Source: a virus
IMG/VR virus record: IMGVR_UViG_3300029957_000008
Coordinates: 27,977 to 91,976 of that record
Strand: one strand, 5' to 3'
DNA: 64,000 nucleotides
Below are positions 22,206-53,919 of this stretch, piece by piece; within the stretch, counting starts at the first letter, position 1, and each line of letters starts with the position of its first letter. The notes under the pieces are model-generated. The model was not told the origin of the DNA and did not search any database. It worked only from the letters and a program-made list of their open reading frames with translations. The position numbers and the translations under genes were made by a program.

Positions 22206-24389
22206 ATGCTGTGCCCCAACATTAAAGATTCCAAGGGAATGCTCATCGATGGAGTTTTTTCATCGGAGGCCATCGACTCTTCAGGAGAAGTTGTAAAACT
22301 TGAAGGTATTGATATCTCCTCTATGGAAGAGGGGCACGGGGTTGCCAATTACGAGCACAAGGGAATAGACGCTGGAGGCTTTGGCCGGGAGATCGTAGGA
22401 AGGATCATCTACGTCCACAAGGTTTTTAAGGCTTCGGACTGCGAAGATGACCGCCAAAGGATGTTTTGGAAGAAAGTCAAGGAGCAGCCCTTTCTCTACG
22501 GTATGGTCCGGCTTTACGATGCTGCGGGCCACACCGGAGCAGAGGCCCTAGCGGCCCAAATCCGGGATGCTGTCTACCACGATGATGAAATTACGGTTAG
22601 GTACTCCGTAGAGGGTACAACCCTTGAGCGGGATGGAAACATCATTAAGACCTCCATCGCTAGGAAGGTTGCTCTAATCATTGGCCCCTGCAATAAGACC
22701 TGTCTATCCGGTGTGGTTAAAGACACCAACGCCCCTAAGGGATACCAAAAAGAGGACATCGAGAAGTCTGAATTATTGTCCGATCCTTCAAGCCGAAGCA
22801 TCGGTGACGCCCCAGAGTACCAGTACAACCCAATCGTGTCGGATTTTACCAAGAACCCGCTTATTGATCTGGTCCAGAGCTTAGAGCTACTAAAGAGCAT
22901 GACGGCGGGTGGTGGAGACGCAGCCCCTTCTACTCTTACTGGCGGCCAAGCTCTACAAAGGGAAGAGCTAGGTGGCGTCTACAAGAACCACATCGTTGAC
23001 GCCATCAAGGACTACAAAGACCCTTGGGACCACGGTAAGTTTCGAAAGTTTCTAAAAGCTCGGTTGGACAAAGCTGACCTTCCTGAGGTTTCTGACTCGT
23101 TCTTGGACTACTTCATGGGGATCGCCAAGGACTACCAGATTAAGAAGCATCAGGACATTAACCAGGAGTACATTACTAATACTTCGCTGGTTGGCCAAGT
23201 CCATCAGTTAGAAGGATATCTGGTTGAGCTGAGGAAGTCCATCAGAGACGAGCTAGAGGGGTACCAAGTTAGCCTTCCTGAGGTTTACGCCGTCAAGATG
23301 AAGGTGGGTAATGATTACCTACCCGCTGGTCGGTTCATGGTGGTTCAAAACGCAGTCCACCACCTAGAAGACTACCATGGGATCCTAGCAGCTATGATTC
23401 CCGAAGGGCCTTTGGGTGTAGACGGCCAGACTGGAATAGAAGCCCTCAAGATGGTCCCCGAGTTCTCGGTTACCGAGCATCAGATTCCTGAGCCGGTAGC
23501 CAATACAGTACCTGGTATTGTTGGGGTGGTTTCCAACAAGCTTCAAGCCCCACAAAGGGCCGCTGTTTTTGAATATATTCGGCCCGGTATGGGGCAGTCC
23601 CATATTGTTGAGTTTAGTGAGCATGGCGCAGCCCTGGATGGTGAAAAGCTGACAGATGATGAGCTGAATCTCATTGTCTCCAATGTTGAAAGCGGTTTGG
23701 CTACTCTCAAGTGGAAGCAGAATAGCAACCAGGACTTGAGTAAGTCTGACATGGGCGTGCATGAGGCTATGGCTGGTTTAAGAGCGGCCGTATCGGCCGG
23801 ACATGTGCATCCTGATGTCGAAAGGGCGTTTACCAAGCACGTCTTTGAGGACCACATGGTTCCTGGGGTGGGTAATAAGTTCGCTTGGAATGAATTTCAA
23901 CGACAGAACAAGCCAGGAGTACTTGGGTCTATTGATCTTAACTCTTTTAAGCACATTAACGATACTCGCGGCCATATTGCCGGCGATAGCGCGATCAAGG
24001 CCGTTGGTGGGGCACTGAAGAGTGCTGCTGAGAAGGTTGGGACAGTAAAGCTGTTTAGGACTGGTGGAGACGAGTTTGCCATTCACAGCCCTACTCAAGA
24101 AGATGCTCATAGGTTTATGAGAGAAGCAAGGTCTCACATGGCTCAAATACCGCCAGTTGGCGGGGTACATAAGCCATCGTTCAGTATCGGCTTGGGCCAG
24201 GACTTTGGGACGGCAGACAAGGCTTTGTATCTAGCCAAGAAGCAAAAGGTCGATCCTGTGACGGGTAAGAACGCCTATCACCCTGCCAGAACTCCTCACT
24301 TGGGGCACTCTTTGCTGCCAGGATCGGAAGGGCCGATCAATATGTCTGAAGCACCTACGGCTTCGACTGGGTCAAAGGTAGCGGCGTAG
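22206..24389 (+). CDS. prohead serine protease fused to a C-terminal GGDEF diguanylate cyclase domain
   Basis: Protease: DSSGEVV, NYEH, YSVEG, ALIIGPCN. GGDEF: DLNSFKHINDTRGHIAGD, FRTGGDEF (24063-24077), ADKALYLAK. Confidence 0.9.
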   Translation: MLCPNIKDSKGMLIDGVFSSEAIDSSGEVVKLEGIDISSMEEGHGVANYEHKGIDAGGFGREIVGRIIYVHKVFKASDCEDDRQRMFWKKVKEQPFLYGMVRLYDAAGHTGAEALAAQIRDAVYHDDEITVRYSVEGTTLERDGNIIKTSIARKVALIIGPCNKTCLSGVVKDTNAPKGYQKEDIEKSELLSDPSSRSIGDAPEYQYNPIVSDFTKNPLIDLVQSLELLKSMTAGGGDAAPSTLTGGQALQREELGGVYKNHIVDAIKDYKDPWDHGKFRKFLKARLDKADLPEVSDSFLDYFMGIAKDYQIKKHQDINQEYITNTSLVGQVHQLEGYLVELRKSIRDELEGYQVSLPEVYAVKMKVGNDYLPAGRFMVVQNAVHHLEDYHGILAAMIPEGPLGVDGQTGIEALKMVPEFSVTEHQIPEPVANTVPGIVGVVSNKLQAPQRAAVFEYIRPGMGQSHIVEFSEHGAALDGEKLTDDELNLIVSNVESGLATLKWKQNSNQDLSKSDMGVHEAMAGLRAAVSAGHVHPDVERAFTKHVFEDHMVPGVGNKFAWNEFQRQNKPGVLGSIDLNSFKHINDTRGHIAGDSAIKAVGGALKSAAEKVGTVKLFRTGGDEFAIHSPTQEDAHRFMREARSHMAQIPPVGGVHKPSFSIGLGQDFGTADKALYLAKKQKVDPVTGKNAYHPARTPHLGHSLLPGSEGPINMSEAPTASTGSKVAA

Positions 24390-24765
24390 TCTTTCGGCAG
24401 CTTTTGCAGGTTCGTTCGCGTTGAGTGAACGATAAGAACATTGGCAGGACCTTGTTGCAGGCGTAGCACTCTCTGAGGCCGCTGTCCGCATTGCATTTGC
24501 TGCATAGGCCGTTGCTGTTCAGTTTTCGGTGTTTGAGGCAGCAGGCGCAGACTGTATCTGGCCACTTTTTGACCATTATGTCCTCTTTCCTGCAGGATTT
24601 ACACTTTGAAGTGACGGGTCTAGCTGTGCCCTCCCGGATGAACTCATGGAAGGCCCTCCTGGGAAGGGCTTTCTTGCATCCAGAGCATCTGTAGGTCTCG
24701 TCAGCGGTCACTATTGGTAAGATTAGTGTTTTATACATTTTTTGTAGCTCACTAATGTCAATCAT
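24355..24765 (-). CDS. multi-Zn-finger protein (three CxxC...CxxC units)
   Basis: Six CxxC motifs; antisense insertion within the head cluster. Confidence 0.55.
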   Translation of the reverse strand: MIDISELQKMYKTLILPIVTADETYRCSGCKKALPRRAFHEFIREGTARPVTSKCKSCRKEDIMVKKWPDTVCACCLKHRKLNSNGLCSKCNADSGLRECYACNKVLPMFLSFTQRERTCKSCRKTTPLPLTQSKP

Positions 24766-24803
24766 TAATAAGAGCAGTTTGCTCGTAACTTTAAGGAGAC
24801 TCC

Positions 24804-25283: not shown

Positions 25284-25310
25284 TTGGGCACTTGATTTAA
25301 GGAGCCCACA

Positions 25311-26243
25311 ATGGACATGAAAAATCTAACAAAGAAAGGTCTGGAGAAACTCATTGATGATGTTTCTTTGGGTCTTACGGCCGTCTTGGCAAAAGCCGAG
25401 GCGGAAGGCGCTGTTGAAGGACAGACGCTAGCGAAAGCAGACCCAGGGCAGGAAGCTCCTGCGGAAAAGGTCCCTGCTGGTTCGTCTAGCGAAAGTTCCG
25501 ATTCCAGCCCCGCCAAAGAGGAATCTAGTCCTGCAGCCCCGGCCGCAGATGCTAGTCCTGCTGAGGAAACTCCTGGTGAAGTACCTGTTGCAGAAGGGGC
25601 GCCTGCTCCTAGTGCCGAAGGTTCGGAACCAGCAGAAGACACGGGTGGTACGGTTGAGCAGCTTCAGGCTGAATACGCCGCACTTCCTGTCGAGGAACAG
25701 AAGATGCACTTGCTAGCTCTCAAAGCTGCTTTGATGTCGACGTTGGCATCTCAGGGTGGCGAAGGCGATGCCGGTGTTGCTCCTGAAGGTATGCCTGCTC
25801 CAGACGCTTCTGCGGCTCCCGCCGCTCCCGAAGCTGCTGCCCCAGCGCCTGCCCCAGAGCAAACAGAAATGCCTCCGATGGCTAAGTCCGAAGACCGAGC
25901 ACTTGCTCTAGAACTTGAGACCCTTAAGAAGGCCTTGAGTGACAAGGAAGAGATTATTGCAAGCACCAATCAAATGGCGGCTGCTTTCAAGAACTTCCTT
26001 GAGCGAAACAACGGTCGTCGGCTTTCAGTCGCTGCGGCTTCGGTTATGCCGAAGACTCAGACCGACCTAGCCAAGTCAGAAGGTATTGACGTCACCTCTC
26101 TTTCCCCAGTGGAAATCAACCGGAAGCTCACAGAGGTAGCGGCTTCGGGAACCCTCAAGAAATCAGATAAAGACCTCGTCCTTAAGTATGTAGCTGGCAG
26201 GGACAAAAAAGATGTCGGCTCAATCGCACATCTTTTAAAGTAA
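25311..26243 (+). CDS. scaffold/internal head protein
   Basis: Acidic Ala/Pro/Glu-rich with coiled coil; directly before the MCP; many LxK[AS] motifs. Confidence 0.7.
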   Translation: MDMKNLTKKGLEKLIDDVSLGLTAVLAKAEAEGAVEGQTLAKADPGQEAPAEKVPAGSSSESSDSSPAKEESSPAAPAADASPAEETPGEVPVAEGAPAPSAEGSEPAEDTGGTVEQLQAEYAALPVEEQKMHLLALKAALMSTLASQGGEGDAGVAPEGMPAPDASAAPAAPEAAAPAPAPEQTEMPPMAKSEDRALALELETLKKALSDKEEIIASTNQMAAAFKNFLERNNGRRLSVAAASVMPKTQTDLAKSEGIDVTSLSPVEINRKLTEVAASGTLKKSDKDLVLKYVAGRDKKDVGSIAHLLK

Positions 26244-26259
26244 TAAGGAGACCCTTCAC

Positions 26260-27675
26260 ATGAATCCATTGTCGCAAATTCAAGACCTCGTAAAGGCACT
26301 AGAGGCCGGCAACTATGATGCCGCCCCCAGCACACTAGAGCAAGGCTCTGCCCTGCAGATTGAAGACCTCAATCCTGTCATGGTCATGGTCACAGCAGAA
26401 GAAAAACACATTAAGCTCCAGAAGCTGATTCCTGTTGAGTCGTCTAAGTCGACGACTTTTCAGTTCAACCGTCAGCTCTCGGTTGGTATCATGGGTGGCA
26501 GCGCTCAGATGGAAGGTAACGTTGGTCAAGAGGAAACTTCTGACTACGTACGTATCACCATCCCAATGACGTACTACTCGCACATTCGTCGGGTGACTGT
26601 TGCTTCGACCTTGGTTGCCAGCTCTGATGGTAAGAAGTCAGATGAACGGGCGGCTCAGGATGCGGCTAAGAAAGTCTCCTTTGACGTTGAGTTCGACCTC
26701 TTCCGTGGTCTTGAGTGTTTCAGCAACGCCGGTACTTTCGACGGCAACCCGCTGACCACCTCGAACCTTCTCCCCAACATGCATGGCCTTTCGCTCCAGG
26801 TTCGTCAGTCGGACTTCCAGGTGAACAGCCGTGATGCAATGTTCGCCGAGTTCGGTTCGGATCAGACGGTTGTTCTTTCAGCCGGTGGTTCGACTCTAAC
26901 CCAGGGTATCATTGAAGACGGCGCTCTCCGTAGCTCTTTGGGCTTCGGCGAAGCGGACAAGCTCATTGTGGATCCCGTGGTTCTCGCTAACTACAACAAG
27001 ATCACGTTCGGCAAAGAGCGTATCATCCTCGCGGGTAGCCCGCAAGATGCGACTGCCGGTGACCTTCGTCGTCAGTGGGTCTCGGGCGGCACTGTGAACA
27101 TTGAAGCTTCGCAGTTCCTCCGTGGCAAGTTCAAGCCCGCTCCTGTGCGTGCGAACAGCCCCGTGGCTCCTGCTAGCATCACTGTGACCCCGGCTTCGGC
27201 CACCAACCCGACCGGCCTCGCCGCTGGTGTTTATTACTACTTCGCTACCGCTGGTAACGAAGTTGGTGAGTCGGTTGCTTGTACGGCAGTGTCTTCGGGC
27301 AGCGTGACGAAGGACTACAAGGTTACGGTTGTGGTTACCCAGCCCGCGTCTGGCGTCTACCGCTTCTACAACATCTACCGTTCGCCTGTCGGCGGTACGG
27401 CAGCTCAGGCCAAGTTCATTGGTCGCGTTGTTCCGACCCAGGGCTCGTCCACGACTAACTTCGTTGACCTCAACGGCATGAATCCTGCAGCGGTTACTGG
27501 TTACTTCCTTCAGAAGGACGGAGCCAGCATTCGTGAACTGGCTTCTTACAGCCGCCTCAAGCTGGCCGTCTCGGACCTCAGCATGCCGGAAGCTCACTTC
27601 CGCTTCCTGGGCCTAGCGGTTGAGACTCCTCGCAAGTTCGTCCTCATCGACAACTTGAATGGTACCATCAGCTAA
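26260..27675 (+). CDS. major capsid protein (Twort/SPO1-like, with an FN3-like insertion)
   Basis: N-terminal LVKALEAG...GSALQIEDL; YYYFATAGNEVGES and YNIYRS insert; strong RBS; followed by a terminator. Confidence 0.9.
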   Translation: MNPLSQIQDLVKALEAGNYDAAPSTLEQGSALQIEDLNPVMVMVTAEEKHIKLQKLIPVESSKSTTFQFNRQLSVGIMGGSAQMEGNVGQEETSDYVRITIPMTYYSHIRRVTVASTLVASSDGKKSDERAAQDAAKKVSFDVEFDLFRGLECFSNAGTFDGNPLTTSNLLPNMHGLSLQVRQSDFQVNSRDAMFAEFGSDQTVVLSAGGSTLTQGIIEDGALRSSLGFGEADKLIVDPVVLANYNKITFGKERIILAGSPQDATAGDLRRQWVSGGTVNIEASQFLRGKFKPAPVRANSPVAPASITVTPASATNPTGLAAGVYYYFATAGNEVGESVACTAVSSGSVTKDYKVTVVVTQPASGVYRFYNIYRSPVGGTAAQAKFIGRVVPTQGSSTTNFVDLNGMNPAAVTGYFLQKDGASIRELASYSRLKLAVSDLSMPEAHFRFLGLAVETPRKFVLIDNLNGTIS

Positions 27676-27703
27676 TAACTAAAGCTTACATAGCTTAAGA
27701 AAC

Positions 27704-28084: not shown

Positions 28085-28648
28085 ATGATTCGCGTTCTAA
28101 TTTGTTCAGCTTACGGCAACCAGCCTTCAAATCTGGTTAAGGCCCTTAAATATTCACGATACGCCTTATATAAGGGTTATGCCACCTTTGCTCCACACAT
28201 CGAGTACTCTTCTTGTCTTTCCGATTCCGATGAGGACGAACGGGAGATGGGTATTAATGCCGGACTGGCATTTTTATTAGTGTGTGGGGAGATGTGGGTC
28301 TTTGTGGTTGATGGCGTTCTCTCAACTGGCATGAAGAAAGAGATCAAAACAGCGATTAAGAACAACGTCCTAATCCGTTGGTTTGATGCCTCGAACGACG
28401 AGGATATTAAAGAGCTAATGCACATTCCTTCAGACAGAGTACCCCTCAAGAGAGACTTCGTTACCGACCTAGGAAAGGCTACGGTCAGCAAGTTTTCCGA
28501 GATCGAAGCCTTGCTTAAGAGTGGGGCTAAGTATGGAGACTTGGTAGACAGCATTGACGATCTCCTTGGAACCGCCATGCCAGACAGGGATCTTGAGGCC
28601 GAGCAAATCTACGAAAACACAGTTAAGGATCGAGATGAAGAAATATAA
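28085..28648 (+). CDS. nucleoside deoxyribosyltransferase-like Rossmann protein (DUF4406/DUF7768-like)
   Basis: VLICSAY...FAPH...EREMGI...CGEMWVF...STGMKKEI pattern. Confidence 0.65.
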   Translation: MIRVLICSAYGNQPSNLVKALKYSRYALYKGYATFAPHIEYSSCLSDSDEDEREMGINAGLAFLLVCGEMWVFVVDGVLSTGMKKEIKTAIKNNVLIRWFDASNDEDIKELMHIPSDRVPLKRDFVTDLGKATVSKFSEIEALLKSGAKYGDLVDSIDDLLGTAMPDRDLEAEQIYENTVKDRDEEI

Positions 28649-30199: not shown

Positions 30200-33100
30200 A
30201 TGGATCAAGACACCAAACCCAAGGAGTTTTCTGTCGTCATCATTTCTGATGGCCAAGGGAAAGTTCTGTTTGGCAAGCGAAACGACAATAAGAAGTGGAC
30301 GTTGGCTGCAGGCGGCCTTAATCCGGGCGAAACGCCCGAAGAAGGAGCCTTAAGAGAAATGTTCGAGGAGACAGGGTTAAGACCGAAGAAGCTGTCCTTT
30401 GTAACGACAAAAAAGACTCCCAACAATACAGTCCACTTCTTCTCATGTCAATGCCCCGGTGAGCCTACTACCGAAAACGATCCCGACAAGGAATGCTCCA
30501 AGCTTCAATGGGTTGATGTTCGTGGTGGAGTCCCTTCCAACATATGGAACAACCTCCATGGTCCAAAGGGCGATGAAAACATCGTAAGACAAGTCTACGA
30601 CCTCAAGAAGTCGGAGCAAGTTTGGCTAGAGGATTGTGGATTCCTAGACCTATCTAAGTCAGAAAACGAGTCAGAGGTTTCGACACTTCTAAGGCACCCA
30701 AATCCCTCTGAACGATCTCTAGCCCTTAAGCTCAACACCGTCACACCTCACGATCTAGCCGTGGCTATCCTAGATCCAGATCCTAAGGTCTGGGGAACGG
30801 CGTTTGACCACAAAGATGCTACCCACGCTCACACAATTCTCTCTTCTAATACTAGGGATGCTGCGGGAAACCCTCTTTGGGAACGACACAACCTGCTACT
30901 AAAAGACCCCAGGTTCAATAAAGAGCATCTTACGCTCATGGCTCATGCCGTCCGCAAAGACTCCTCGTTATCCCCTAAAGACCAAGCTGACAGACTTAAG
31001 GTCTTGGCCCTCAATGGGTACTCGGATCTCAAGAAGTCTTCTGCGTGGGCACATCATCTGTTATACGCAGGTTCCACCCAAGGACAAGATCTTGCCGACT
31101 CAAGTGCCGAACCTGTTCACGAGACCCTAAAGCCTCTCAAACACGAGTATGAATCGGCTCTATCGTCTGAGGACGCTATTGAGCCGCACAACGCTGGTTT
31201 GCATGACATTGGCCAGGTGTCTCATAAGGTGGTCTACAAGGTTGGATCTAACAAGCTCATGGTGAAGCCCTATGCCGAAGAAGAACAGCCTTTGTCTGGT
31301 TGGTCTGAAGGGGCTTCTCAAGCTATCTACCATGCCGCCGGTTTGGGACACCTACATCAAAGGTCCTTTGTGTCCCATCACGGCGGTGGGAAGTACAACA
31401 TTCCGGCTACTGTGATTCATTTGGATGCTGAGGCAACGCCTATCCATAAGGCTCCCTTAGGGACAGTCAGGGAGCAGAATCCGGCTTTGGATGACGAAGC
31501 CAGGAAGATGTCTGTGATGGACTTCCTTACGGCGAACCACGACCGGCACACCAACAACCTCATGGTCCAAAAGAACGGCCATTTGTTGGCCGTGGATAAC
31601 GCCAGTGCGTTTGGAAGCCACCCGTACACATTTCCTTACTACACCAATAAGGGTGTAAGCGTAGTTCTTGGAAAAAATCATGACATGCTGCCTGAAGGGA
31701 AGCAGGCCTATACACGGCTATTAGCCGATTGGTGGCCTGGGATTAGTACGGATGTGAAGTCTGAGCTGAATAAGCGGGTCGCCCAGATTAAGCACCCGGC
31801 TCACAGTCGGAGAATCAAGGAGGCCTTTGACCAAAGGGCTGCTTGGCTAGACCGAAAGTCTCAGGAAGCCAAAGCTGGAAATGTTAGTGGGTTTGATGAC
31901 TTTGCTCCTGCTCCGTTAGAGAAAAGGATGGAGGAAGCCGAGTTTCTTGGCGATCACCCTAAGATGAAAATCGAAGGGTTGCACGAGAATCTTTTGGACA
32001 AGCACCCGGCGTCAATGAACGCCGACGTAGAGCACTTTGAGAAGAACGTCAATACCTCTAAGCACAATGTACGCCCTTTGAAGGAGAAGCTCAAGGGGGC
32101 CGACATGAAGGCTGTTTACGGCCATGCGGATAAGAAGTACTTGGTTAAGCCGTCTGTTTTCAATAATGAAGAGCTGACCCACCTCAATACGCCACTTTCT
32201 GCCTGGTCAGAGCTTACACACCAGGCGATGTACCACGCTGGTGGTATCGGACACCTACACCAGAAGGTTCATGCCACTGTTGCCAAGAATGTGTTTCCTG
32301 ATGCTCATGGGCTCGTAGTCCACATGGAGCCAGGAGCCAAGGAAGTCCGGGAGCTTAATGATAAGGAGAAGACTGCGCTAACCAACCATCCTGACTTCAA
32401 GAAGATCCCCTTTATGGACTTTGTGACTTTTAACAAGGACCGTCACGAAGGAAATCTGATGGTTAAGCCTGACGGTACTCCGCTTGCGATTGACCACAGT
32501 CTTGTTTTTGGGAAAGACGCCGACTCCAAGTTCTCCTTAGAGAACCAAGATCTGCATTATGAAGAGCCGGGGTATGGATTCAGAACGCCTATGCAGACTG
32601 CGTCCAAACCGGATGCTAGCACTTGGGCTTGGTGGGACGCAAACAAAGACAAGATCAAAGAGTCTTTCCACAAGCACGCGGACCTTATTCCTCACAAAGA
32701 GACCCGGAACAGACTAAAAGACTCGTTCAACTACAGAATGGACATGCTGGAAGATGGCGCTACGCCCATGGGCCAGCCAATTAGGGAAGGCCTACATAAG
32801 ACACTTGAAGGTGCTGACTTCCTTCATAAACAGCACGATCAGCCGTCTTTAATCAAGCCCATCAACGTTGCTGGCGTCCATGACAAGCTCAAGGTCTCTA
32901 CTCCTGACGCCATAAAGATTCACAGGCAGAAGTTTGAGCTTGGGTTAAATCAGCACCCAACTGTGGCTAAGCCTGTAATGAGCTACGATCCTTCGGTCAA
33001 GCGAACACTTGCAGGTGAAGAACCTAAGGCTATCTACAAGATGGGCAATGACCACGTAATGGTTAAACCCCAGGCCGCTCCAACATCAAGGCTTTCGGCC

Positions 33101-33979
33101 TGGAACGAAATGACTTCCCAGGCGATGTACCACGCTGGAGGTATTGGGCATCTACACCAGAAGGTTCACGCAACAACTTTGGCCAATCAGGGGGGTAAGA
33201 CTGTTCTTGGCAAGGACCCCCACGCAATCGTGGTGCACATGGCGCCTAACGTCCGACCCGTTTCGGAGGCATTGAAGGACGATCAAGATACCAGCTTAGA
33301 CAGCATGGCCAGCAATCCAGAACACCTACAGTCTCTCAAGAAAATCGGGGTTATGGACTGGTTGACATCGAATCCTGATAGGCATGAGGGGAATATTATG
33401 ATTGCTCCCGATGGGTCTCCCTTGGCTATCGATCACGGTCGAGCTTTTTCAAGCGATAGAGTTCACGCTTTTGGTGGTGAGTATGATCGTGATTTGGAGG
33501 CTCAAGGTCGAATTGCTTTGGCCGGACACCTCAATCACCCCGACATGCCTAAGGCGACCAGTCAAATTATGGAAAGTGTTGGGAAGCAAAAGGCTTGGGA
33601 CGAAGCTGTGAACAAAGACCCTCACAAGCAGTTGGATGGGTTTGACAATTTTAGTGGGTATGGTGGTGGAGACTTTTTCTCCGACGCCACCAAAATGGGC
33701 GGATCCCCAGATGAGGAAACCTGGAACTGGTTTGACGCAAACAAAGATAAAATGCATGAGGCTTTTAGGAAGCACGCTAACATGCTCCCCGACCAAGACG
33801 CCCGAAACAAAATGATGGGGTCGTTTAATGTCAGGATGGAACACCTAAAGCAAGTTCGAGAGAATAGCCGAGGTAAGGATCCTAACAAGTTAGATGTTCA
33901 AAACCACTCACCCGTAGCTTATCGGCCTACGGCCCCAAGCATGGTTGAATCTCATCCAACGGAAAGAAGGGTAGCCTAA
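30200..33979 (+). CDS. polyprotein: NUDIX hydrolase + helical domain + three PI3/PI4K-HipA-like kinase domains
   Basis: Nudix box GGLNPGETPEEGALREMFEETGL. Three VKP...E...DRH[TE][NG]N...[VI]D[HN] units with catalytic loops at 31541, 32438 and 33377. Confidence 0.85.
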   Translation: MDQDTKPKEFSVVIISDGQGKVLFGKRNDNKKWTLAAGGLNPGETPEEGALREMFEETGLRPKKLSFVTTKKTPNNTVHFFSCQCPGEPTTENDPDKECSKLQWVDVRGGVPSNIWNNLHGPKGDENIVRQVYDLKKSEQVWLEDCGFLDLSKSENESEVSTLLRHPNPSERSLALKLNTVTPHDLAVAILDPDPKVWGTAFDHKDATHAHTILSSNTRDAAGNPLWERHNLLLKDPRFNKEHLTLMAHAVRKDSSLSPKDQADRLKVLALNGYSDLKKSSAWAHHLLYAGSTQGQDLADSSAEPVHETLKPLKHEYESALSSEDAIEPHNAGLHDIGQVSHKVVYKVGSNKLMVKPYAEEEQPLSGWSEGASQAIYHAAGLGHLHQRSFVSHHGGGKYNIPATVIHLDAEATPIHKAPLGTVREQNPALDDEARKMSVMDFLTANHDRHTNNLMVQKNGHLLAVDNASAFGSHPYTFPYYTNKGVSVVLGKNHDMLPEGKQAYTRLLADWWPGISTDVKSELNKRVAQIKHPAHSRRIKEAFDQRAAWLDRKSQEAKAGNVSGFDDFAPAPLEKRMEEAEFLGDHPKMKIEGLHENLLDKHPASMNADVEHFEKNVNTSKHNVRPLKEKLKGADMKAVYGHADKKYLVKPSVFNNEELTHLNTPLSAWSELTHQAMYHAGGIGHLHQKVHATVAKNVFPDAHGLVVHMEPGAKEVRELNDKEKTALTNHPDFKKIPFMDFVTFNKDRHEGNLMVKPDGTPLAIDHSLVFGKDADSKFSLENQDLHYEEPGYGFRTPMQTASKPDASTWAWWDANKDKIKESFHKHADLIPHKETRNRLKDSFNYRMDMLEDGATPMGQPIREGLHKTLEGADFLHKQHDQPSLIKPINVAGVHDKLKVSTPDAIKIHRQKFELGLNQHPTVAKPVMSYDPSVKRTLAGEEPKAIYKMGNDHVMVKPQAAPTSRLSAWNEMTSQAMYHAGGIGHLHQKVHATTLANQGGKTVLGKDPHAIVVHMAPNVRPVSEALKDDQDTSLDSMASNPEHLQSLKKIGVMDWLTSNPDRHEGNIMIAPDGSPLAIDHGRAFSSDRVHAFGGEYDRDLEAQGRIALAGHLNHPDMPKATSQIMESVGKQKAWDEAVNKDPHKQLDGFDNFSGYGGGDFFSDATKMGGSPDEETWNWFDANKDKMHEAFRKHANMLPDQDARNKMMGSFNVRMEHLKQVRENSRGKDPNKLDVQNHSPVAYRPTAPSMVESHPTERRVA

Positions 33980-41655: not shown

Positions 41656-42554
41656 TGCCCGATGTTATTTCATCAATCCTAGATCAGGGTGGTTTTGGAA
41701 GCCCATTTTTCTCAGGGGCATTCAGCAACTACATCCTCAGGCAGGGTGAGGTTATCAAGATAGTCTACCCTACTTCCCAGGAGTCGGTGTCGAAGACTTT
41801 TACTGAGTACAACGTTCTTGTGGCCCACTATGAAAGTGGAATGATAGGCCACAAGATCTACAAGAACTGCAGGCTCATCAATCCCCTTGGTGGTGGCGCG
41901 GATCAGTGCAGTTGGACCCTTAGAGCGTCCACCAAGCCAATCAAGGACTATAAGTCCAGTGATGGCTCCAGAGTTCTCATCCTGTGTGTCGAAGGCTCTT
42001 ACAATAGAGCTGTGATCCTTGGTGGGGCGAGAGATGAACGTTGTGGTGGAGATAGTGAGAAAGACGGCCACCACCTAAACTGGAATTTCAACGGAGTCAA
42101 CTTCAAAGTCAATGACGATGGCTCTTGGGAGATCGTCAACAATGGGAAGAACACAAACCTAGGCTCCCTAGATGGCAGCGTGGACAAGGACGGCATTGGA
42201 ACGACAGTCAAGGTAGAAGCCAATGGTAACTTCAATGTTACGTCGGCTAAGAAGAGCCAGAGTATTACTATTGACAACGCCAACGACACAATCACCATTC
42301 AGGGTGACAGCGATGTCATAGTGGATGGAAAGACAATTCACTTAGGCACCAACGCCGGCCAACAGGCCGTATTGGGGAACCAGTTAGTGGAGATCCTTCA
42401 GGAGCTTATTACCGCGATTACGGCAATGACAAGTTTCACCTTTGGTGTGCCAGGAACCATTACTAGCCCCCCAATAAACGCCCCGCAATTCTTAGCTATC
42501 GCTGCGAAATTACAGATGATTTTGTCCAACCAAACTTTCGTTAAGCAAGGCTAG
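41655..42554 (+). CDS. baseplate spike (gpV/gp5-like)
   Basis: OB-like GSRVLILCVEG...AVILG, then beta-helix repeats and AVLGNQL. Confidence 0.7.
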   Translation: MPDVISSILDQGGFGSPFFSGAFSNYILRQGEVIKIVYPTSQESVSKTFTEYNVLVAHYESGMIGHKIYKNCRLINPLGGGADQCSWTLRASTKPIKDYKSSDGSRVLILCVEGSYNRAVILGGARDERCGGDSEKDGHHLNWNFNGVNFKVNDDGSWEIVNNGKNTNLGSLDGSVDKDGIGTTVKVEANGNFNVTSAKKSQSITIDNANDTITIQGDSDVIVDGKTIHLGTNAGQQAVLGNQLVEILQELITAITAMTSFTFGVPGTITSPPINAPQFLAIAAKLQMILSNQTFVKQG

Positions 42555-42568
42555 CCAATCTTTTTAAT

Positions 42569-45064
42569 ATGGCCACACCGCTGTCCGCATTCCAAACTCC
42601 GACCACTTCGGGCCGGGCTGCGCTTGCCGATTTGCCAGTTGATTCTCAAGGCCTCCTAACCCTTGCTGCAGACAATGCCGCTTTAGAGACCCCAGACGAC
42701 AAGTTCTGGCCATCCCCCACTTTTGACATCGTCAAGTGGAACAAGCTCTACCCCTACCAGCTCATAGTAGTTGACGCCACAAAAGACTCTTCAGGCAACG
42801 TTAAGTATGCTCAGCACGGCAAGGCAGCCTTTACTCTTCCATTTCCTCCAGAGTCCCTAAGACGAACCAAGCCCATCGCCATGAACTTGACGGTGACTCT
42901 TGGTGGTGTGGTCGAAGAGTCCAACGGCGCTCCAATCGAGTACTTGTCCTTGAGCGGCACCACAGGTCACCTCCCCTCAAGATCTACCTCTCCAGACAAT
43001 CAACCTCTCAAGAATCTTGACAACCTTACAGGCGGCTTCATCCAGGGCACAATCAACCAGCTTGCTGGCACCCTAACAGACCTAGCCTCTTTCACCAAGA
43101 CGTTCTTCGCCAACGCCAACAACGTCCACCTAGAGTCCGACTTTACTCCAGACTCAAGACTATCTAAGACTTCAGGCTACTACCAGATTAACCTCCTAAG
43201 GAAGTTCCTAGAGAAGTACATCGCAGCCAAGAAAACGGCCACGGGCCGATCTTTACGGCTGGCATTTGCAATGTGGAAGGATTCTGAAGTACTTTTAGTA
43301 ACCCCTTCAGTTTTCGTCACAACCAAAGACGTCTCCTCGCCAGTAGAGGCAAGGTACTCCATGGAGTTAAAAGCCTGGAAGAGAATTACCCTAGGAGTCA
43401 GTGATTCTTCCTTTCAAGCACCTACACCTATCAGGAACAGCCCGTCAACCCTGGCCCGTGCCATCAACACTCTTTCCAACGCCAGGAAGATAGTCCAGGA
43501 CATTGGCAACATCCCCCAAGCCGTTCTTGGCGATGTGACTCATATCAATGAGGTCTTTCGCCAAAGTATCGGCTTTTGCAAGGACATTGCTGGAACCATC
43601 CAGACCTTTGCGGACTTCCCGTCCAACGTCAAGGAGTCTATTGTCAACAAGGTATATGAGGACGGAAGAGACTTCAAGCAGGCAGGTAGGCAGATATCTA
43701 GCAGCTCCAGCAACCTGAAGAAGAACTGGCTAGATCAGTCCTCGCCTTCTACACCTACCAATAAGAGTGTAATAAAGAGATCCAACAATCCAGTAATCAA
43801 AGGCATCCAGCAAAAGGGCTTTGACGACAAGACTCTAGACACCCTTTTGCCCTACATGAATGCTTCTGACAAGTCCAATATCACGGCCGATACGGCCCGA
43901 TTGAGGGGGTTGGTAAGGGCTGACTTTGAACGACTTAGGGATGACCTAAAGGCCTTCTCTGCACGACTAGCGTTTATCCTGGGTGCTGGCAATGAAACGT
44001 ATCGAGACACCTATGGGCTTGGGGCGATAGCTCCCATCAAAAAAGAGCCCACAGATAGTGACTGGGATCTCCTATACGCCCTGAACGACTCCTTGAGTGT
44101 CCTGGACTCCTTGGCGGCAACTGGTAATGGTGAGCCTTCTGAGCCAGCTCGACTGATGGACAATATGGCCACGTTGGCCAGGGGTTCGGGAATTGCCTTC
44201 AAGGTGCCAGTCAGCAAGTTTGCGGTGCCGTTCCCTTACGGTATTACACTTGAGGCTTTGGCATCTAAATACCTTGGCGACCCGAATAGGGCGCTCGAAA
44301 TCATCACCCTTAATGGGCTCAGAGAGCCCTATGTGGATGAGCTAGGGTTTGACCTGCCATTCCTAGTAAACGGTAGTGAGAACACAGCTATTGTCCAGTA
44401 CACAACGAACCTATATGTAGGTCAGCGTGTGCACGTTGGATCCAACGGGGTTACCCGAACCAACAGGAAGATCTCGGGGCTTACCAAGACTTTGGATGGC
44501 AAGCTGGAAGTAACCCTGGACGGAGACAGGGATCTGAACAGGTACCGGGTTAATGACGGCGCGGTCTTGCACGCCTATCTGCCTGACACCATCAACTCCC
44601 AGCAGCTGGTCTACATTCCGTCTGACCAAGACGCCCTGGACAACGAGTATCTAACCAAGGACATTCCAACGGTCGATACGACCGATCCTATGGTAGTGGC
44701 TGGTGGGGTGGACCTTCTACTTGATTCTCAAAAGAATCTAGTGATCACACCTGAGGGAGATAGTCCATACGCGACTGGACTAACTAACATCATTCAGGGT
44801 GTACAAATAGCTTTTGCCGTCAACCAAGGCAAACTACCTTTACACAAAGGATTTGGTTTGCCTGTAAAGGTCGGGGACAGCGTAGCGGATATCAACGCCA
44901 CTTCCATTGTGAAGGCCGTCCGAGACATGCTCCAGAACGACTCATCGTTTTCTAGCGTGGACATGGTGAAGGTAAGGATCAACGGTAACAGTGCCCGTAT
45001 TGATACTTCGGCCACAGTGGCCGGCACCAGTGCGCCGTTACCTTTGAGTTTTGGGATTGGGTGA
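42569..45064 (+). CDS. baseplate protein with LysM-like and gp25-like C-terminal domains
   Basis: TLEALASKYLGDPNRALEIITLNGL; GLTNIIQ...GKLPLHKGFG. Confidence 0.65.
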   Translation: MATPLSAFQTPTTSGRAALADLPVDSQGLLTLAADNAALETPDDKFWPSPTFDIVKWNKLYPYQLIVVDATKDSSGNVKYAQHGKAAFTLPFPPESLRRTKPIAMNLTVTLGGVVEESNGAPIEYLSLSGTTGHLPSRSTSPDNQPLKNLDNLTGGFIQGTINQLAGTLTDLASFTKTFFANANNVHLESDFTPDSRLSKTSGYYQINLLRKFLEKYIAAKKTATGRSLRLAFAMWKDSEVLLVTPSVFVTTKDVSSPVEARYSMELKAWKRITLGVSDSSFQAPTPIRNSPSTLARAINTLSNARKIVQDIGNIPQAVLGDVTHINEVFRQSIGFCKDIAGTIQTFADFPSNVKESIVNKVYEDGRDFKQAGRQISSSSSNLKKNWLDQSSPSTPTNKSVIKRSNNPVIKGIQQKGFDDKTLDTLLPYMNASDKSNITADTARLRGLVRADFERLRDDLKAFSARLAFILGAGNETYRDTYGLGAIAPIKKEPTDSDWDLLYALNDSLSVLDSLAATGNGEPSEPARLMDNMATLARGSGIAFKVPVSKFAVPFPYGITLEALASKYLGDPNRALEIITLNGLREPYVDELGFDLPFLVNGSENTAIVQYTTNLYVGQRVHVGSNGVTRTNRKISGLTKTLDGKLEVTLDGDRDLNRYRVNDGAVLHAYLPDTINSQQLVYIPSDQDALDNEYLTKDIPTVDTTDPMVVAGGVDLLLDSQKNLVITPEGDSPYATGLTNIIQGVQIAFAVNQGKLPLHKGFGLPVKVGDSVADINATSIVKAVRDMLQNDSSFSSVDMVKVRINGNSARIDTSATVAGTSAPLPLSFGIG

Positions 45065-48387: not shown

Positions 48388-48407
48388 GAACAACTCCTAT
48401 TCCTTGA

Positions 48408-48436: not shown

Positions 48437-48458
48437 CTATCAAGTCAATCTTTATGGT

Positions 48459-50549
48459 ATGCTTCTGTTCCTGATAGCTAATGGTGACGGTTTAACTAAA
48501 AAACTGAACCAAGCCAAAGTTTTTAATAACGTCGAAGAGATCCGTAGAGTATCAGCAAGTATCTCAAAAGGCAACTCCCTTTTCGCTTCTTGGGCTCTAA
48601 GAGCCCTCGGTTCGACCATTGAAGAACAAGGTGACGAGATTTTAGTAGAATTGGATGCAGCACAGCTCTTAGAGCTGGAGAGCATCCGGAAGCAATACGT
48701 TACAGCCACAGAGTGCACGGTTAGTGTAGGTATTGGTAAGAAAGTATCAGAAGCCACTAGGGCACTCCTAGCAGCCAAGCTAAAGGGTGGAAATTGTTCA
48801 GTTTTTTACGATAAGGACGTTGAGAAAGAAATTCAAGAAGCCGAAGCTTCCGCCAAAGAAGACCGTTCAGAAATCGTACACCAGTACCTAGCCAAAGCCC
48901 AGAAAAACAATGCGGGCGGAGAAGGGGCGCACGTTACTAATATGGACGCTACGTCCCTAAATACGGTTATCTCCCCAGCCGCCCCGTTAACTCAGGCAGA
49001 TACCGACGAAGCTCTTAATAACAACGCCATCCCCGCTACTGGAGACGCCCAGGGTGGCCCAGAAGCTCTACAGCCCCAAGTCACCCCTACCCCTCAGATG
49101 GATCTTCCCCAGTTTGAGCAGAAGTTTAGAGAGCACGCAGACCAACATGAAGCCTCGGAAAAGGCAAAAAACCTAAGCGAATCAGAGGGTTACAACCAAA
49201 TTAAGCAGCAAGTAGCCGAAGCTCTATTAAACATTAAGTCTCAAATGGGAGTTATTTCTTCCCTGAGGACCCAAGCTCCAGACACCTACGAAGCCATCAT
49301 GGGCGTTGTTAGGGGCCTGATTATGCTCGGAAGAGAAATCACCAATACGGACGACAGGATCGAGAAGGCTGAGCTGTCAAAAGGCATCGCTTCGCCGATG
49401 GGTAATTTGAGGGGTGTAGGAACCGAAGCCGACATGGCATCTACCATCGGAATCGTTGGCTCAGATGCCCTAGACAAGACTTCCCTAGACCCTACAGACT
49501 TTGACCAAGAGCAGCTAGCCATTGGAATCCAGGTCGAGATCCAGGAACACGGTCTAGACGTAGAGGAAGCCAAGAAGCTGGTCATGGATCACCTGAAAGA
49601 GGATCCCGACTACTACAAGAAGGAAACCTTAGCTAAGACGGAATTTTTTTTTGACAGCGGCAACGAGATAAAGAAGCTGCAGTACGATGGTCCGGCCAAT
49701 ATGGCCGGAAATAATCAAAAGCACCTGTTTGTCAACCCAGTAGATAAGACAAGCTATGTCTATAGGGAGCTTGAATCCCCCCAGCAGGCTTTAGCGGCCG
49801 AATCGGCCAGTAGACTAGCCGAAGCTATCCTGCCCGTCCACTCCAACTATCCCGTCAGAGCACATAACCTAGTGGGCCATGTGGGTATTATGCAGCCAGT
49901 GGTCCAAGGCGCCCATGACTTACAGAACGTAAGCCCTCAAGAGCTAACCGTTACGGAACTAAACGACCTTCTGGGAGAGTTCGTTGTTGACTTTCTCATT
50001 GGTAACGCCTCCACGACCGGAAGAGACCTTTTAAGGACGGTTTCCGGCGATGTGGTTGGAATTGATAAGAAGGACTCCTACAAAGACTTTGATACTGTTG
50101 GGCCATACTACCAGGCGCTTCTAGAGTCCGTAAAGGGCGGAAGTCTGAAAGTGGATGTTGCCGCCCTAAACGGGGTGCTTCAAGTCGTCCAAGGAATCTC
50201 AGAAGACGAGTATCTAGACAATGTAGGTGAGTTTGCCCAGTCAGCCATGCCTCCAGATGGACACATTGAGTTCTGCAAGCAACTGCTAGCGCGCAAGAGG
50301 AACATCTCTTCTCTCTTCATGGACATGTTTAAGAACTCCTTGCAGAAGGGCGAGCGTCCAGAGTTTGGTAAGATGAGAGCCCACATTGACCTACCCGTTG
50401 GCAGCACTGTCTTTGGTAAGGTTAAAGTGAGGCACTGGGACGGTTTAGAAAGTTGGAAGTCAGTCAAGGCCGGCGCAATCCAAGGAATGGATCCTGGTAT
50501 GGCCGGTGAAGGACATCCCGTTTCGGCCAAGAACCCATCGGCTAAATAA
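48459..50549 (+). CDS. polyprotein: mCpol-like cyclase domain + helical domain + DUF5661-like + degenerate kinase domain
   Basis: LIANGDG...EEQGDEILV...TVSVGIG...ALLAAKLKG; FDQEQLAIGIQVEIQEH...MDHLKEDPDYY; VVDFLIGNAS...VVGID. Confidence 0.7.
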   Translation: MLLFLIANGDGLTKKLNQAKVFNNVEEIRRVSASISKGNSLFASWALRALGSTIEEQGDEILVELDAAQLLELESIRKQYVTATECTVSVGIGKKVSEATRALLAAKLKGGNCSVFYDKDVEKEIQEAEASAKEDRSEIVHQYLAKAQKNNAGGEGAHVTNMDATSLNTVISPAAPLTQADTDEALNNNAIPATGDAQGGPEALQPQVTPTPQMDLPQFEQKFREHADQHEASEKAKNLSESEGYNQIKQQVAEALLNIKSQMGVISSLRTQAPDTYEAIMGVVRGLIMLGREITNTDDRIEKAELSKGIASPMGNLRGVGTEADMASTIGIVGSDALDKTSLDPTDFDQEQLAIGIQVEIQEHGLDVEEAKKLVMDHLKEDPDYYKKETLAKTEFFFDSGNEIKKLQYDGPANMAGNNQKHLFVNPVDKTSYVYRELESPQQALAAESASRLAEAILPVHSNYPVRAHNLVGHVGIMQPVVQGAHDLQNVSPQELTVTELNDLLGEFVVDFLIGNASTTGRDLLRTVSGDVVGIDKKDSYKDFDTVGPYYQALLESVKGGSLKVDVAALNGVLQVVQGISEDEYLDNVGEFAQSAMPPDGHIEFCKQLLARKRNISSLFMDMFKNSLQKGERPEFGKMRAHIDLPVGSTVFGKVKVRHWDGLESWKSVKAGAIQGMDPGMAGEGHPVSAKNPSAK

Positions 50550-50752: not shown

Positions 50753-50754
50753 AA

Positions 50755-51567: not shown

Positions 51568-51582
51568 TCTTTTAGTGGCCAC

Positions 51583-52599: not shown

Positions 52600-52656
52600 G
52601 CGTATACAGTTTTTGTAGCATTGACCACCAAATCTTTAATAAAGGACGCTAGACAC

Positions 52657-53919
52657 ATGGACAAAATTTCCAAGGAAGATCTCCGTAAGGGCATCTTACA
52701 GCTTCTCAAGAAAACCGAAGCTAATATTATTTCTATGCAGGCCCGTGAGGCCAAGGGCATGGCTAAACTAGAGAAGCGTCTGAAGAAAGACGAAGCTCTT
52801 CCCGATCTCAACAAAGACGATATGGCCCTGGCTCCCCAAGGCCAGCCTGAAGCTCCTGTTCCTCCAATGGACAAGGCTCAAGGCGGGATTTGTCTTAGTT
52901 GCACTGGGGCCAATCTAGAGCCAATTGGCTCGCTTGGTGGCCAGGATCATCACATCTGCAAAGACTGTGGTGAAGTAGGCCAGACCATTCGTGAGCAGAA
53001 CGAAGCTGCAGAAGTTGAAGCGGCTCAGGAAGGCCTTGTTAGGTCTGACGATTTTGCCGCAGGTGGCGCTGGTGCCGTTGGTGGTGGCCCGGATTTGAAT
53101 AAAGCCGCCCTCCCCGAGAAAAAGCTGCCCACAGTCAACACCGTAAAGCAAGCTGTCGGTCTTTCAAACAAGCCAAAGATCCCCTCAGTCAAGAAGCCCT
53201 CTATTCCTATGACTGGCGCTACCGCCCCTAAGAAGGACGCTTTCAACACTGGTGGCAAGAACCCTGTTTCGGACTCTTTCGCCAAGAAGGACGTTCCTAT
53301 GTCGGATGTCGATCTGAATGACGGCAAGGCTCGTCCAGGGACCAAGATGCCTGTTGCAGGTAAGAAAATTGATGCTCCCGGCTCTGGTGGAATGGCCAAA
53401 ACAGAACTCCGCAAGGACTTCAAAGCCATGGACCAAAAGGCTGCTTCAGTAAAAGCCTCCGCTCCAGCTCCCGTTGCCGCAGCTCCGGCTCAGAAACCAG
53501 CTCCCCAATCGCCTTACGGCAAGGGACTCAATATGGCCGCTCCCCCACCGAAGCGCGAATACGACCCCGTTGACCCACAGAACCCCTCAGTCCGTTCAGT
53601 CGCCAACAAGAAGCTAGCTACCATTCAAGGTCCAGCAAAGGCTACTTCAGTTGCTACGATTCGTCAGAAGTTCAACTCCGCTGTCAATGACAAGGTCCAG
53701 CAGACCAAGCGTAACTCCTACCACGACATCAAACGGCACTCACAAGGACTTCCCGCCACTCAACCAGCTCCAGTAGCTAAGTCGGAAGGCCTTATCAAAG
53801 CTGGCATCCCAAAAGCTCCTACAGCCCCTAAGGCTCCTGAATCCAAAATGCCCGCTGCGCCAGCGGCTTTGCCTTCAGTGAAAAACCCTAATGTTACTCC
53901 AACCGGCACCAAGCTCTAA
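52657..53919 (+). CDS. Lys/Pro/Ala-rich, probably disordered internal head protein with a Zn ribbon
   Basis: Start at MDKISK (AAGGA RBS, late motif at 52630); many [LM]xK[ASTD] motifs; CLSC...CKDCG. Confidence 0.6.
   Translation: MDKISKEDLRKGILQLLKKTEANIISMQAREAKGMAKLEKRLKKDEALPDLNKDDMALAPQGQPEAPVPPMDKAQGGICLSCTGANLEPIGSLGGQDHHICKDCGEVGQTIREQNEAAEVEAAQEGLVRSDDFAAGGAGAVGGGPDLNKAALPEKKLPTVNTVKQAVGLSNKPKIPSVKKPSIPMTGATAPKKDAFNTGGKNPVSDSFAKKDVPMSDVDLNDGKARPGTKMPVAGKKIDAPGSGGMAKTELRKDFKAMDQKAASVKASAPAPVAAAPAQKPAPQSPYGKGLNMAAPPPKREYDPVDPQNPSVRSVANKKLATIQGPAKATSVATIRQKFNSAVNDKVQQTKRNSYHDIKRHSQGLPATQPAPVAKSEGLIKAGIPKAPTAPKAPESKMPAAPAALPSVKNPNVTPTGTKL

Follow-up and report, generated by a model that had tools for sequence, protein, structure and literature searches.

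Recurrence of a predicted capsid-maturation motif at the joints of enzyme polyproteins of an uncultured Mx1-like myophage

The question raised by this locus is why a short lysine-containing motif, found at the start of a phage major capsid protein (MCP), recurs in the portal, the scaffold, the prohead protease and several large multi-domain enzymes encoded near it. The analysed DNA, hereafter the window, is a stretch of 64,000 nucleotides corresponding to bases 27977-91976 of the 92-kb IMG/VR virus record IMGVR_UViG_3300029957_000008, which is estimated to be 56% complete. An earlier note on this DNA had proposed that, between positions 22206 and 53919, capsid-packaged signalling polyproteins are cut apart by the head protease at a shared [L/M/I]-x-K-[S/A/T] motif. 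The window covers the head module of a myophage that is Mx1-like and uncultured; its nearest isolate is Myxococcus phage Mx1 (MCP 52% identity), with which it has in common the gene order helicase, sigma factor, SbcD-like, terminase, portal, protease, cyclase, scaffold, MCP, NUDIX giant, kinase and sheath, the terminase (11847-13889) and the sheath (53932-56445) being recognised with PHROG/Pfam. Remoter MCP relatives are Herelleviridae, e.g. SP-10, CP-51 and SPO1. A search of IMG/VR with the MCP as a single sequence gave no matches; with a two-sequence MCP alignment, 65 loci came up and 59 Mx1-like loci were retrieved, the MCPs of which are 44-75% identical, and the complete genomes among these relatives measure about 160-180 kb.

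Every site listed in the earlier note was found. The MCP (26260-27675, + strand; PHROG major head protein match) carries LVK↓A at amino acid 10, the arrow marking the predicted cut, which would follow Lys12. The portal (14888-16885, + strand, 665 amino acids, PHROG portal matches), whose open reading frame (ORF) lies outside the range that the note had given, has LLK↓S at 22 and the candidate trimming sites LTK↓S at 35 and MTK↓SE at 614, and the acidic scaffold-like protein ORF 25311 (25311-26243, + strand, 310 amino acids) has seven sites, namely LAK↓A at 26 and 40, MAK↓S at 190, LKK↓A at 205, MPK↓T at 246, LAK↓S at 253 and, as the last, LKK↓SD at 282. Further sites stand in the protease ORF 22206 (IEK↓S 185, LLK↓S 228, LRK↓S 342, LSK↓S 511), in ORF 30200 (135, 151, 277, 573 and 865), in ORF 34205 (LAK↓TE 66, LAK↓SE 147) and in ORF 48459 (144, 301, 306, 338, 391 and 628, with K↓G at 306 and 628). 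Three of the listed sites, LEK↓R at position 573 of ORF 30200, LSK↓G and LQK↓G, are off-motif, and the protein cited as ORF 52657 with about eight sites is ORF 52621 (52621-53919, + strand), a Lys/Pro/Ala-rich protein of 432 amino acids with a CxxC...CxxC stretch, encoded upstream of the tail sheath and containing six strict sites. Taken together, the site contexts yield a sharper consensus, L-x-K↓[S/A/T]-[E/D].

Three nested forms of the motif were counted, i.e. the broad motif of the earlier note, [LMI]xK[SAT] and the five-residue [LMI]xK[SAT][ED]. Per-protein shuffles gave an excess of [LMI]xK[SAT] in ORF 22206 (6 vs 1.5 expected, p=0.004), the scaffold (7 vs 1.1, p<0.001) and ORF 52621 (6 vs 1.7, p=0.003), borderline values for ORF 30200 (6 vs 2.9) and ORF 48459 (4 vs 1.7), and no significance for the MCP, the portal or ORF 34205 each taken alone. 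When the eight named proteins were compared with the other ORFs of the 92-kb genome, the five-residue form reached 3.4 vs 0.49 per 1000 amino acids (odds 7, p=7e-7), and 3.06 vs 0.49 in the enzyme (cargo) parts alone (about 6-fold, p=2e-4); [LMI]xK[SAT] gave 7.0 vs 2.9 (p=4e-5), and the broad motif, for which a count in head against other proteins had been proposed as a check, 9.0 vs 4.8 (1.9-fold, p=4e-4). Controls in which P1 was R or E, or in which the motif was reversed, were not enriched in the named proteins; for the candidate set, an unbiased residue-pair scan ranked L-x-K first among the gap-2 pairs (59 vs 30.7); and in the window the tail/baseplate ORFs 36851, 39598, 41655, 42569, 53932 and 58145 showed no [LMI]xK[SAT] enrichment. 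An artefact of composition was rejected on the basis of the shuffles and the control motifs. Because the candidate set had been picked after the motif was seen, the decisive support comes from replication in Mx1 and the 59 relatives.

In Mx1, the five-residue motif occurs 12 times vs 3.0 expected, two copies being located in the portal, four in the scaffold and three in the NUDIX giant. Among the 59 loci, whose counts are inflated by relatedness and are not phylogenetically independent, a point that tells against taking them at face value, the observed/expected sites were 121/5.9 in the scaffold group (about 20-fold), 79/16 in the protease group, 15/3.4 in the portal group (4.5-fold), 17/3.4 in the NUDIX-kinase group, 6/1.2 in the kinase group and 8/1.0 in the mCpol group, the excess in portal, protease and enzyme polyproteins amounting to 4.5-8-fold, and 1/4.4 in the MCP body and 0/1.9, 0/0.8 and 2/1.3 in neck-type genes; control motifs remained flat across the ORFs of these relatives. 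Despite the relatedness, the ratios and the contrast between protein classes are clear. Site by site, the motif is kept in 59/59 aligned relatives at amino acid 10 of the MCP, 22/26 at 228 of the protease, 6/6 at 40 and 8/8 at 282 of the scaffold (an invariant Lys in the C-terminal alignment), 7/11 at 35 and 7/10 at 614 of the portal, 4/4 at 151 of ORF 30200 and 5/7 at 147 of ORF 34205. L-x-K with other next residues was almost never retained as a motif at aligned positions in the relatives. This pattern supports a functional, ordered signal, and its distribution (scaffold far above protease, portal and cargo, these above neck, tail and replication proteins) supports what would be expected for a prohead-protease site, which the L-x-K↓[S/A/T]-[E/D] motif very probably is.

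The MCP N-terminus, L-x-K↓A-L-E-A-G, is nearly invariant across the clade, and the predicted trimming would remove 12 residues at LVK↓ALEAG (nucleotides 26287-26298). This site aligns with LNK↓ALEAG of SPO1 gp6.1 (PDB 9vel), and Lys12↓Ala13 aligns with K24↓S25 of phi812 (VVK↓SFQTG), the start of the deposited mature chain: the phi812 capsid chain has 463 residues at full length in 5lii and 439 in 9row, where it starts at the Ser after Lys24. The phi812 evidence is a depositors' chain start and not an N-terminal sequence from a paper, and a literature search returned no usable published N-terminal data for phi812/A511. In the Herelleviridae phage SP-10, the scaffold has 8 vs 1.7 expected sites and the protease 9 vs 1.2, the portal carries motif sites near both ends and the MCP reads LNK↓AL. 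The pattern of SP-10 being the same, the K↓S/A rule is therefore older than the split within the phages with an SPO1-type head module, to which it is ancestral; in itself it is nothing new. Herelleviridae (SPO1 gp6.1, phi812/K, SP-10) resemble the present phage by their homologous MCP and protease, by the multiplication of L/V-x-K↓S/A in scaffold and protease, by a mature phi812 MCP that begins, as deposited, after a Lys and by a copy of the MCP N-terminal arm in the C-terminal part of the SP-10 protease; on the other hand, their protease is of about 250 amino acids and lacks enzyme cargo, and no enzyme polyproteins stand between their capsid and sheath genes.

The protease domain of ORF 22206 comprises amino acids 1-187 (22206-22766, + strand; AlphaFold2 (AF2), Foldseek and hhalign) and ends at IEK↓S 185. 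AF2 modelled its amino acids 5-175 from a 45-row alignment with a predicted local distance difference test (pLDDT) score above 90, and Foldseek against BFVD matched HK97-family/Proheadase_HK97, COG3740 and XkdF prohead proteases (E 1e-5 to 1e-7), the top match being an uncultured-phage protein annotated with a PI3K/PI4K domain, i.e. a protease-kinase fusion. In an hhalign comparison with the head maturation protease of Bacillus phage SP-10 (probability 95.6%, E=1.2e-8), His51 (NYEH) and Ser134 (YSVEG) align with NYDH and FSIEG of that protease, and both residues are present in 26/26 genuine protease-domain rows. No Pfam peptidase model (e.g. Peptidase_S78) matched the protease even at E<=1, its PHROG match was weak (PHROG_1028, E=3.9e-4) and a PDB sequence search with the domain gave no match. 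As judged from the model, the fold and profile matches and the invariant His and Ser, this is an HK97-fold, SPO1-type prohead serine protease, and the motif statistics together with the deposited mature phi812 chain start suggest that it cuts after Lys.

Behind the protease domain, amino acids 222-258 (22869-22979, + strand, BLASTP), which include LLK↓S 228, are a copy of the MCP N-terminal arm, 54% identical to MCP amino acids 4-40 (26269-26379), cleavage motif included (E=3e-6). A hidden Markov model (HMM) of the copy matched about 40 protease orthologues, Mx1 included, after the protease domain, and no other protein; the copy is also found within the 247-residue SP-10 protease. Since the HK97 protease has a targeting region at its C-terminal side, it may by analogy represent the encapsidation signal of the protease polyprotein, a candidate role of which no prior description was seen. 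According to Duda, Oh and Hendrix (2013), the region of HK97 gp4 after the protease domain reportedly brings the protease, along with any foreign protein fused to it, into the procapsid. The location after the protease domain is the same in both cases, whereas the candidate signal here is a copy of the MCP's own N-terminal arm with natural enzyme cargo behind it.

This putative cargo includes an alpha/beta module (amino acids 345-513; 23238-23744, + strand; AF2 domain 357-505), located between LRK↓S 342 and LSK↓S 511, and a GGDEF diguanylate-cyclase module (amino acids 514-727; 23745-24389, + strand) with RTGGDEF intact, a Pfam score of 57.9 bits vs a cutoff of 23.8 and pLDDT above 95. The alpha/beta module is a separate gene in Mx1 (16721-17173) and in several relatives, and the GGDEF module is the separate 'nucleotide cyclase' gene of Mx1. 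The protease ORFs of the relatives range from 302 to 1639 amino acids and bear, behind the arm copy, GGDEF, PI3_PI4_kinase, ParB_N, DUF6321, DUF5661 and inteins, and the Mx1 protease (1239 amino acids) ends in a kinase-like region. As the proteases of the relatives and Mx1 carry the same modules, these move between the protease gene and companion polyproteins. The alpha/beta domain has a conserved (V/H)LEDHxG stretch and always precedes the GGDEF module, either fused or as its own gene (e.g. L042:6859 and L008:6367), and is possibly a regulatory partner of the cyclase. Of the intein-like (Intein_splicing/Hint) segments in the relatives' protease polyproteins, that of L061:306-4589 scored 36.9 bits, above the Pfam cutoff, and that of L022:2034-6752 scored 17.3 bits, well below it.

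The largest companion polyprotein, ORF 30200 (30200-33979, + strand, 1259 amino acids), consists of a NUDIX domain (5-125), a helical repeat (157-271) and three kinases (341-~560, 638-855 and 943-~1215). Its Pfam matches are NUDIX (69.7 bits) and PI3_PI4_kinase (94.7 bits in three stretches); the Nudix box G-x5-E-x7-REUxEExGU is complete at amino acids 37-59, MutT, RppH and NudC being the nearest folds by Foldseek, and kinases 1-3 all retain the VKP Lys, DRHxxN and (I/V)D(H/N), with fold matches to p110 and VPS34. ORF 34205 (34205-35527, + strand, 440 amino acids) has two small N-terminal modules followed by a PI3/4K-like kinase (Pfam 32.2 bits) with a DRNAGN loop and IDHG, and kinases homologous to it occur as protease fusions in relatives and in Mx1; all four kinase domains resemble PI3K/VPS34 catalytic domains and the SCO1664 family. 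In ORF 48459 (48459-50549, + strand), an mCpol-like domain (5-116) is followed by LAK↓A 144, IEK↓AE 301, DUF5661 (344-388), LAK↓TE 391, a pseudokinase (~394-633) and a conserved C-terminus. The mCpol-like domain scored 44.8 vs a cutoff of 26.4 in Pfam and 32.3, under the cutoff of 40, in NCBIfam; its catalytic motif reads QGDE, the first Asp being replaced by Asn, and the kinase-like part has lost the catalytic DRH loop. Relative to the Mx1 orthologue, amino acids 308-633 are a 325-residue insertion (DUF5661 and pseudokinase) bracketed by IEK↓A and LQK↓G. The domain calls of the earlier note (GGDEF, NUDIX, both PI3_PI4_kinase matches and mCpol) were thereby borne out by Pfam. For ORF 52621 there was no family match in Pfam, PHROG or Pfam at E<=1, and Pfam at E<=1 returned nothing usable for the protease, amino acids 231-344, the alpha/beta module, the helical repeat, the ORF 34205 N-terminus, or the middle and C-terminal parts of ORF 48459. 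In 31 giant ORFs of the relatives, Pfam found PI3_PI4_kinase 16 times, NUDIX 8, GNAT 5, ART-PolyVal 2, GGDEF 2, mCpol 1 and PBECR5 1.

These domains bear on whether the enzyme-like proteins could instead be structural or assembly parts of the head or neck, with secondary or inactive folds and with processing serving assembly. The N- and C-terminal parts of ORF 48459 are conserved in a syntenic neck-proximal block common to Mx1, its mCpol motif is degenerate and its kinase a pseudokinase, and ORF 30200 comes after a neck-type gene, all of which would suit such a role. Nevertheless, ORFs 22206, 30200 and 34205 retain an intact Nudix box, GGDEF and kinase Lys/DRHxxN/Asp motifs, and the module content varies freely among relatives, unlike that of a structural part, so that this explanation seems very improbable. 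An effect of these enzymes on the host is speculation, for which the observation that host cells turn spherical after Mx1 adsorption (PMC6070905) is a lead only.

Most sites fall in linkers that AF2 models with low confidence. In the AF2 model of ORF 22206, the segments with pLDDT below 50 include 183-188 (IEK↓S), 229-245 (LLK↓S) and 507-514 (LSK↓S), which separate the protease, a helical part, the alpha/beta domain (357-505) and GGDEF (515-715). In ORF 30200, the NUDIX fold ends at about amino acid 125 and the sites at 135 and 151 follow it in a stretch of pLDDT around 60 (130-160); site 277 opens the disordered 274-340 (pLDDT <50) before kinase 1, LEK↓R 573 lies within the weak segment 561-640 before kinase 2, and LHK↓T 865 within the disordered 856-927 (pLDDT <50) before kinase 3. 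Over both models, 9/12 strict sites are below pLDDT 70 (10-residue block means). Gene fission and fusion points agree with these linkers: the starts and ends of separately encoded homologues lie a median of 7 residues from the nearest site vs 42 for random positions, and 86% of the separate-gene boundaries are within 25 residues of a site vs 37% for the null, with seven distinct boundaries supported. Thus seven separate ORFs begin at the equivalent of ORF 22206 amino acids 347-355 (near LRK↓S 342), separate-gene ends and starts fall at 492-507 (near LSK↓S 511), the NUDIX domain is encoded alone in six genes (130-142 amino acids) that end at the equivalent of ORF 30200 amino acids 130-136 (LKK↓S 135), a stand-alone kinase has its ends at 578 and 864 of the same protein, and ends of relatives' ORFs map to 302 and 395 of ORF 48459. 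The placement of the motif at domain boundaries, as claimed in the earlier note, is therefore supported by pLDDT linkers and by fission/fusion points, apart from two copies clearly inside folds, IIK↓T 146 (a protease strand) and IHK↓A 415 (kinase 1).

Alternatively, the motif in the enzyme proteins could be a passenger, copied along with linkers during duplication and shuffling and recurring by descent, in which case the true substrates would be limited to MCP, scaffold, portal and protease. In favour of this, kinases 1-3 arose as tandem duplicates and have the homologous linkers LEK↓RMEEAEFL and LHK↓TLEGADFL, and the cargo enrichment in the window alone is modest. Against this, the modules next to the sites are unrelated to one another (NUDIX, helical repeat, alpha/beta, GGDEF, DUF5661 and mCpol), relatives keep the motif though the flanking linker diverges until BLAST alignments break, L-x-K with other following residues is not conserved and three separate cargo groups are enriched across the clade. 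The passenger explanation consequently appears improbable. As the joints carry the motif of the predicted MCP trimming site, the head protease probably cuts the enzyme strings, and we consider it somewhat favoured that the enzymes are processed in the head by this protease, in the manner of polyvalent cargo proteins. To this extent the proposal of a motif-delimited cargo cut by the head protease gains comparative support from the motif, the boundaries, the protease fusions and the MCP alignment.

Besides the relatedness of the counted loci and the nature of the phi812 evidence, several observations weigh against processing of the enzymes in the head. The two copies inside folds belong here, as does the kinase 1-kinase 2 joint, whose LEK↓R is off consensus. 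The cargo enrichment, about 5-fold, is far below the 20-fold of the scaffold, and the terminase group has 6/2.2 observed/expected sites (2.8-fold). ORF 48459 orthologues are mixed, two complete relatives being without linker sites, and the excess in ORF 52621 was not reproduced in the syntenic ORFs of relatives (5/1.9, 3/2.3 and 2/1.8), so that this protein, whose membership is doubtful, is not counted as a member. HMM searches found no MCP-arm copy in the free-standing cargo proteins; a search for a scaffold-like C-terminal peptide recovered only further scaffolds and none in cargo; mostly no leaders were seen on separately encoded modules, and the separate alpha/beta and GGDEF genes of Mx1 and others start without leader or motif. 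Moreover, the literature searched held no virion proteomic or biochemical data for the Mx1 clade, and a search for packaged phage kinases returned nothing usable.

Expression signals also bear on the fate of the enzymes. The element CAATCTTT (22191-22198, + strand) stands 7 nucleotides upstream of the protease start and occurs in eight exact copies (3.1 expected), all on the + strand, at 11119, 13894, 22191, 28914, 36831, 42556, 48446 and 58128. Each copy lies 5-21 nucleotides upstream of the start of a structural-module ORF, mostly without a Shine-Dalgarno sequence, and among these starts are ORF 28927, at the head of the operon with ORF 30200, and ORF 48459. CAATCTTT qualifies as a candidate for either a late promoter or a short-leader start signal. 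Being common to cargo and structural genes, it suggests that the two are co-expressed, and late expression of host-directed enzymes would be most easily explained by packaging for the next infection.

According to the proposed sequence of events, late genes would produce the MCP, the scaffold, the portal, the protease-cyclase polyprotein and the multi-enzyme 'polyvalent' proteins. The protease polyprotein would enter the procapsid by means of the MCP N-terminal arm copy just after its protease domain, and the protease would then take 12 residues off the MCP, trim the portal and chop the scaffold into small pieces. Enzyme strings would be cut at their linkers, giving the GGDEF cyclase, the alpha/beta module, NUDIX, the helical module, four PI3K/PI4K-like kinases, the mCpol-like domain and the pseudokinase. 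Folded modules, too large to leave the shell, would stay in the head, be ejected with the DNA and act on host nucleotide and phosphorylation signalling before phage gene expression. Injection of active enzymes has, in our estimate from sequence comparison, not quite an even chance.

Alternatively, the protease may cut the proteins while the enzymes act in the producing cell, cleavage being a late switch that turns cyclase, NUDIX and kinases on or off at the time when proheads mature, or the pieces may be expelled or degraded together with the scaffold. The lack of a detectable targeting signal on the free-standing cargo proteins, the leaderless GGDEF and alpha/beta genes and the silence of the motif pattern on the place of action are in line with these views. 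However, prohead proteases of this fold work within the procapsid, many relatives have these very modules covalently joined to their protease, folded modules of 15-35 kDa are unlikely to escape a closed shell, and the domain toolkit matches that of proteins predicted to be delivered at invasion (PMC5512222). Action in the producing cell, its variant of loss with the scaffold included, is therefore held to be unlikely, though less so than the passenger and structural explanations. An extension of processing and delivery is a modular loading system, in which any module that has L-x-K↓S/A on its flanks and sits behind the arm copy or in the companion polyproteins would be taken into the capsid, set free by the maturation protease and injected, the virions delivering kinases, cyclase and NUDIX that reset host signalling within seconds; this must be regarded as tentative and rather doubtful. 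Such loading might underlie the rounding of Myxococcus cells after Mx1 adsorption (PMC6070905).

How far the arrangement is new can be seen from known systems. The earlier note had called it uncharacterised, which is true to a lesser degree than stated: capsid-packaged polyvalent proteins with kinase, GGDEF, NUDIX and ART domains were predicted in 2017 (PMC5512222), and the K↓S/A rule is shared with Herelleviridae. Iyer et al. 2017 described polyvalent proteins of phages and conjugative elements as late proteins uniting 2-15 unrelated effector domains (kinase, GGDEF, NUDIX, GNAT, ART, PBECR, ParB), predicted to be packaged and delivered, and proposed an in-cis zincin-like metallopeptidase (MPTase) for their processing (PMC5512222). 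The present strings are alike in composition (NUDIX with three kinases; protease with GGDEF; mCpol with DUF5661 and pseudokinase) and in the presence of TerL and portal, and the relatives' homologous giant ORFs carry ART-PolyVal and PBECR5; the signature domains ART-PolyVal, PBECR, GNAT and ParB occur only in ORFs of relatives and not in the window's own proteins. They differ in that the joints carry the capsid maturation motif and in that the prohead protease itself heads one string, and no MPTase domain was found in any cargo ORF of the window.

Two systems of head processing offer a further comparison. In T4, the head protease gp21 not only trims the capsid protein and breaks down the scaffold core but also processes proteins which are retained and injected, among them the host-modifying enzyme Alt (PMC5512222, PMC9026906). 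A head protease that handles capsid, scaffold and head-retained proteins (IPI-III and Alt in T4) is the common trait, whereas T4 has a gp21-type protease with L/I-x-E sites and substrates of a single domain that bear an N-terminal capsid-targeting sequence, and the present phage has an HK97-fold protease, a predicted cut after Lys and substrates made of several enzymes in a row, in one case joined to the protease. No T4-type N-terminal targeting peptide was found, the NUDIX fold standing at the very start of ORF 30200, and there is no enrichment of E at P1. In SPN3US/phiKZ-type phages, many head proteins, ejected ones included, are processed at the short motif A-x-E by gp245, the SPN3US propeptides holding several motif copies and the protease cutting itself (PMC10052503). 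Short-motif processing of many head proteins is thus alike, but motif and protease lineage are other ones, nearly all SPN3US cuts remove N-terminal propeptides and not enzyme modules, and no cyclase or kinase cargo has been described there.

Should the proposal be true, a phage head would naturally load and release many enzymes under a protease code readable from sequence, polyvalent proteins would gain a concrete processing mechanism, protein/lipid-type kinases and a c-di-GMP synthase would join the short list of virion-delivered phage enzymes, and a capsid-arm copy with L-x-K↓S linkers would offer a simple design rule for packaging foreign proteins. As one member of the clade, Mx1, can be grown on Myxococcus xanthus, the prediction is directly testable.

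Some further features of the window were noted. ORF 16886-17668 (260 amino acids, weak PHROG portal C-terminal match) starts directly after the TAA of the portal in the same frame, and Mx1 has counterparts of both in different frames. Such same-frame abutting pairs (portal/ORF 16886 and ORF 29342/ORF 30200) had raised the idea of stop-codon recoding, which was rejected: no recoding is involved because all three stops are in use (24 TAA, 8 TAG and 6 TGA), and separate genes are annotated in Mx1. A PADLOC search gave weak matches only. A DUF7768 protein (28085-28648, 86 bits) just after the MCP has three motif copies vs 0.55 expected and only four relatives, so that this count is not interpretable. 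Two HNH/endonuclease VII-like genes in the structural module, one after the portal pair (17637-18383) and one after the tail tube region (56971-58137), are likely homing endonucleases, and upstream of the replication/packaging block there is a GroEL-like chaperonin gene (1351-3198, - strand; PHROG_5725, E=3.5e-79). Finally, five large ORFs in 36851-45064 and 58145-62980 (915, 685, 299, 831 and 1611 amino acids) have no motif excess and nearly no family matches, a baseplate-like C-terminus being seen in ORF 42569 only; they probably encode tail or baseplate components and represent an insertion when compared with the gene order of Mx1.

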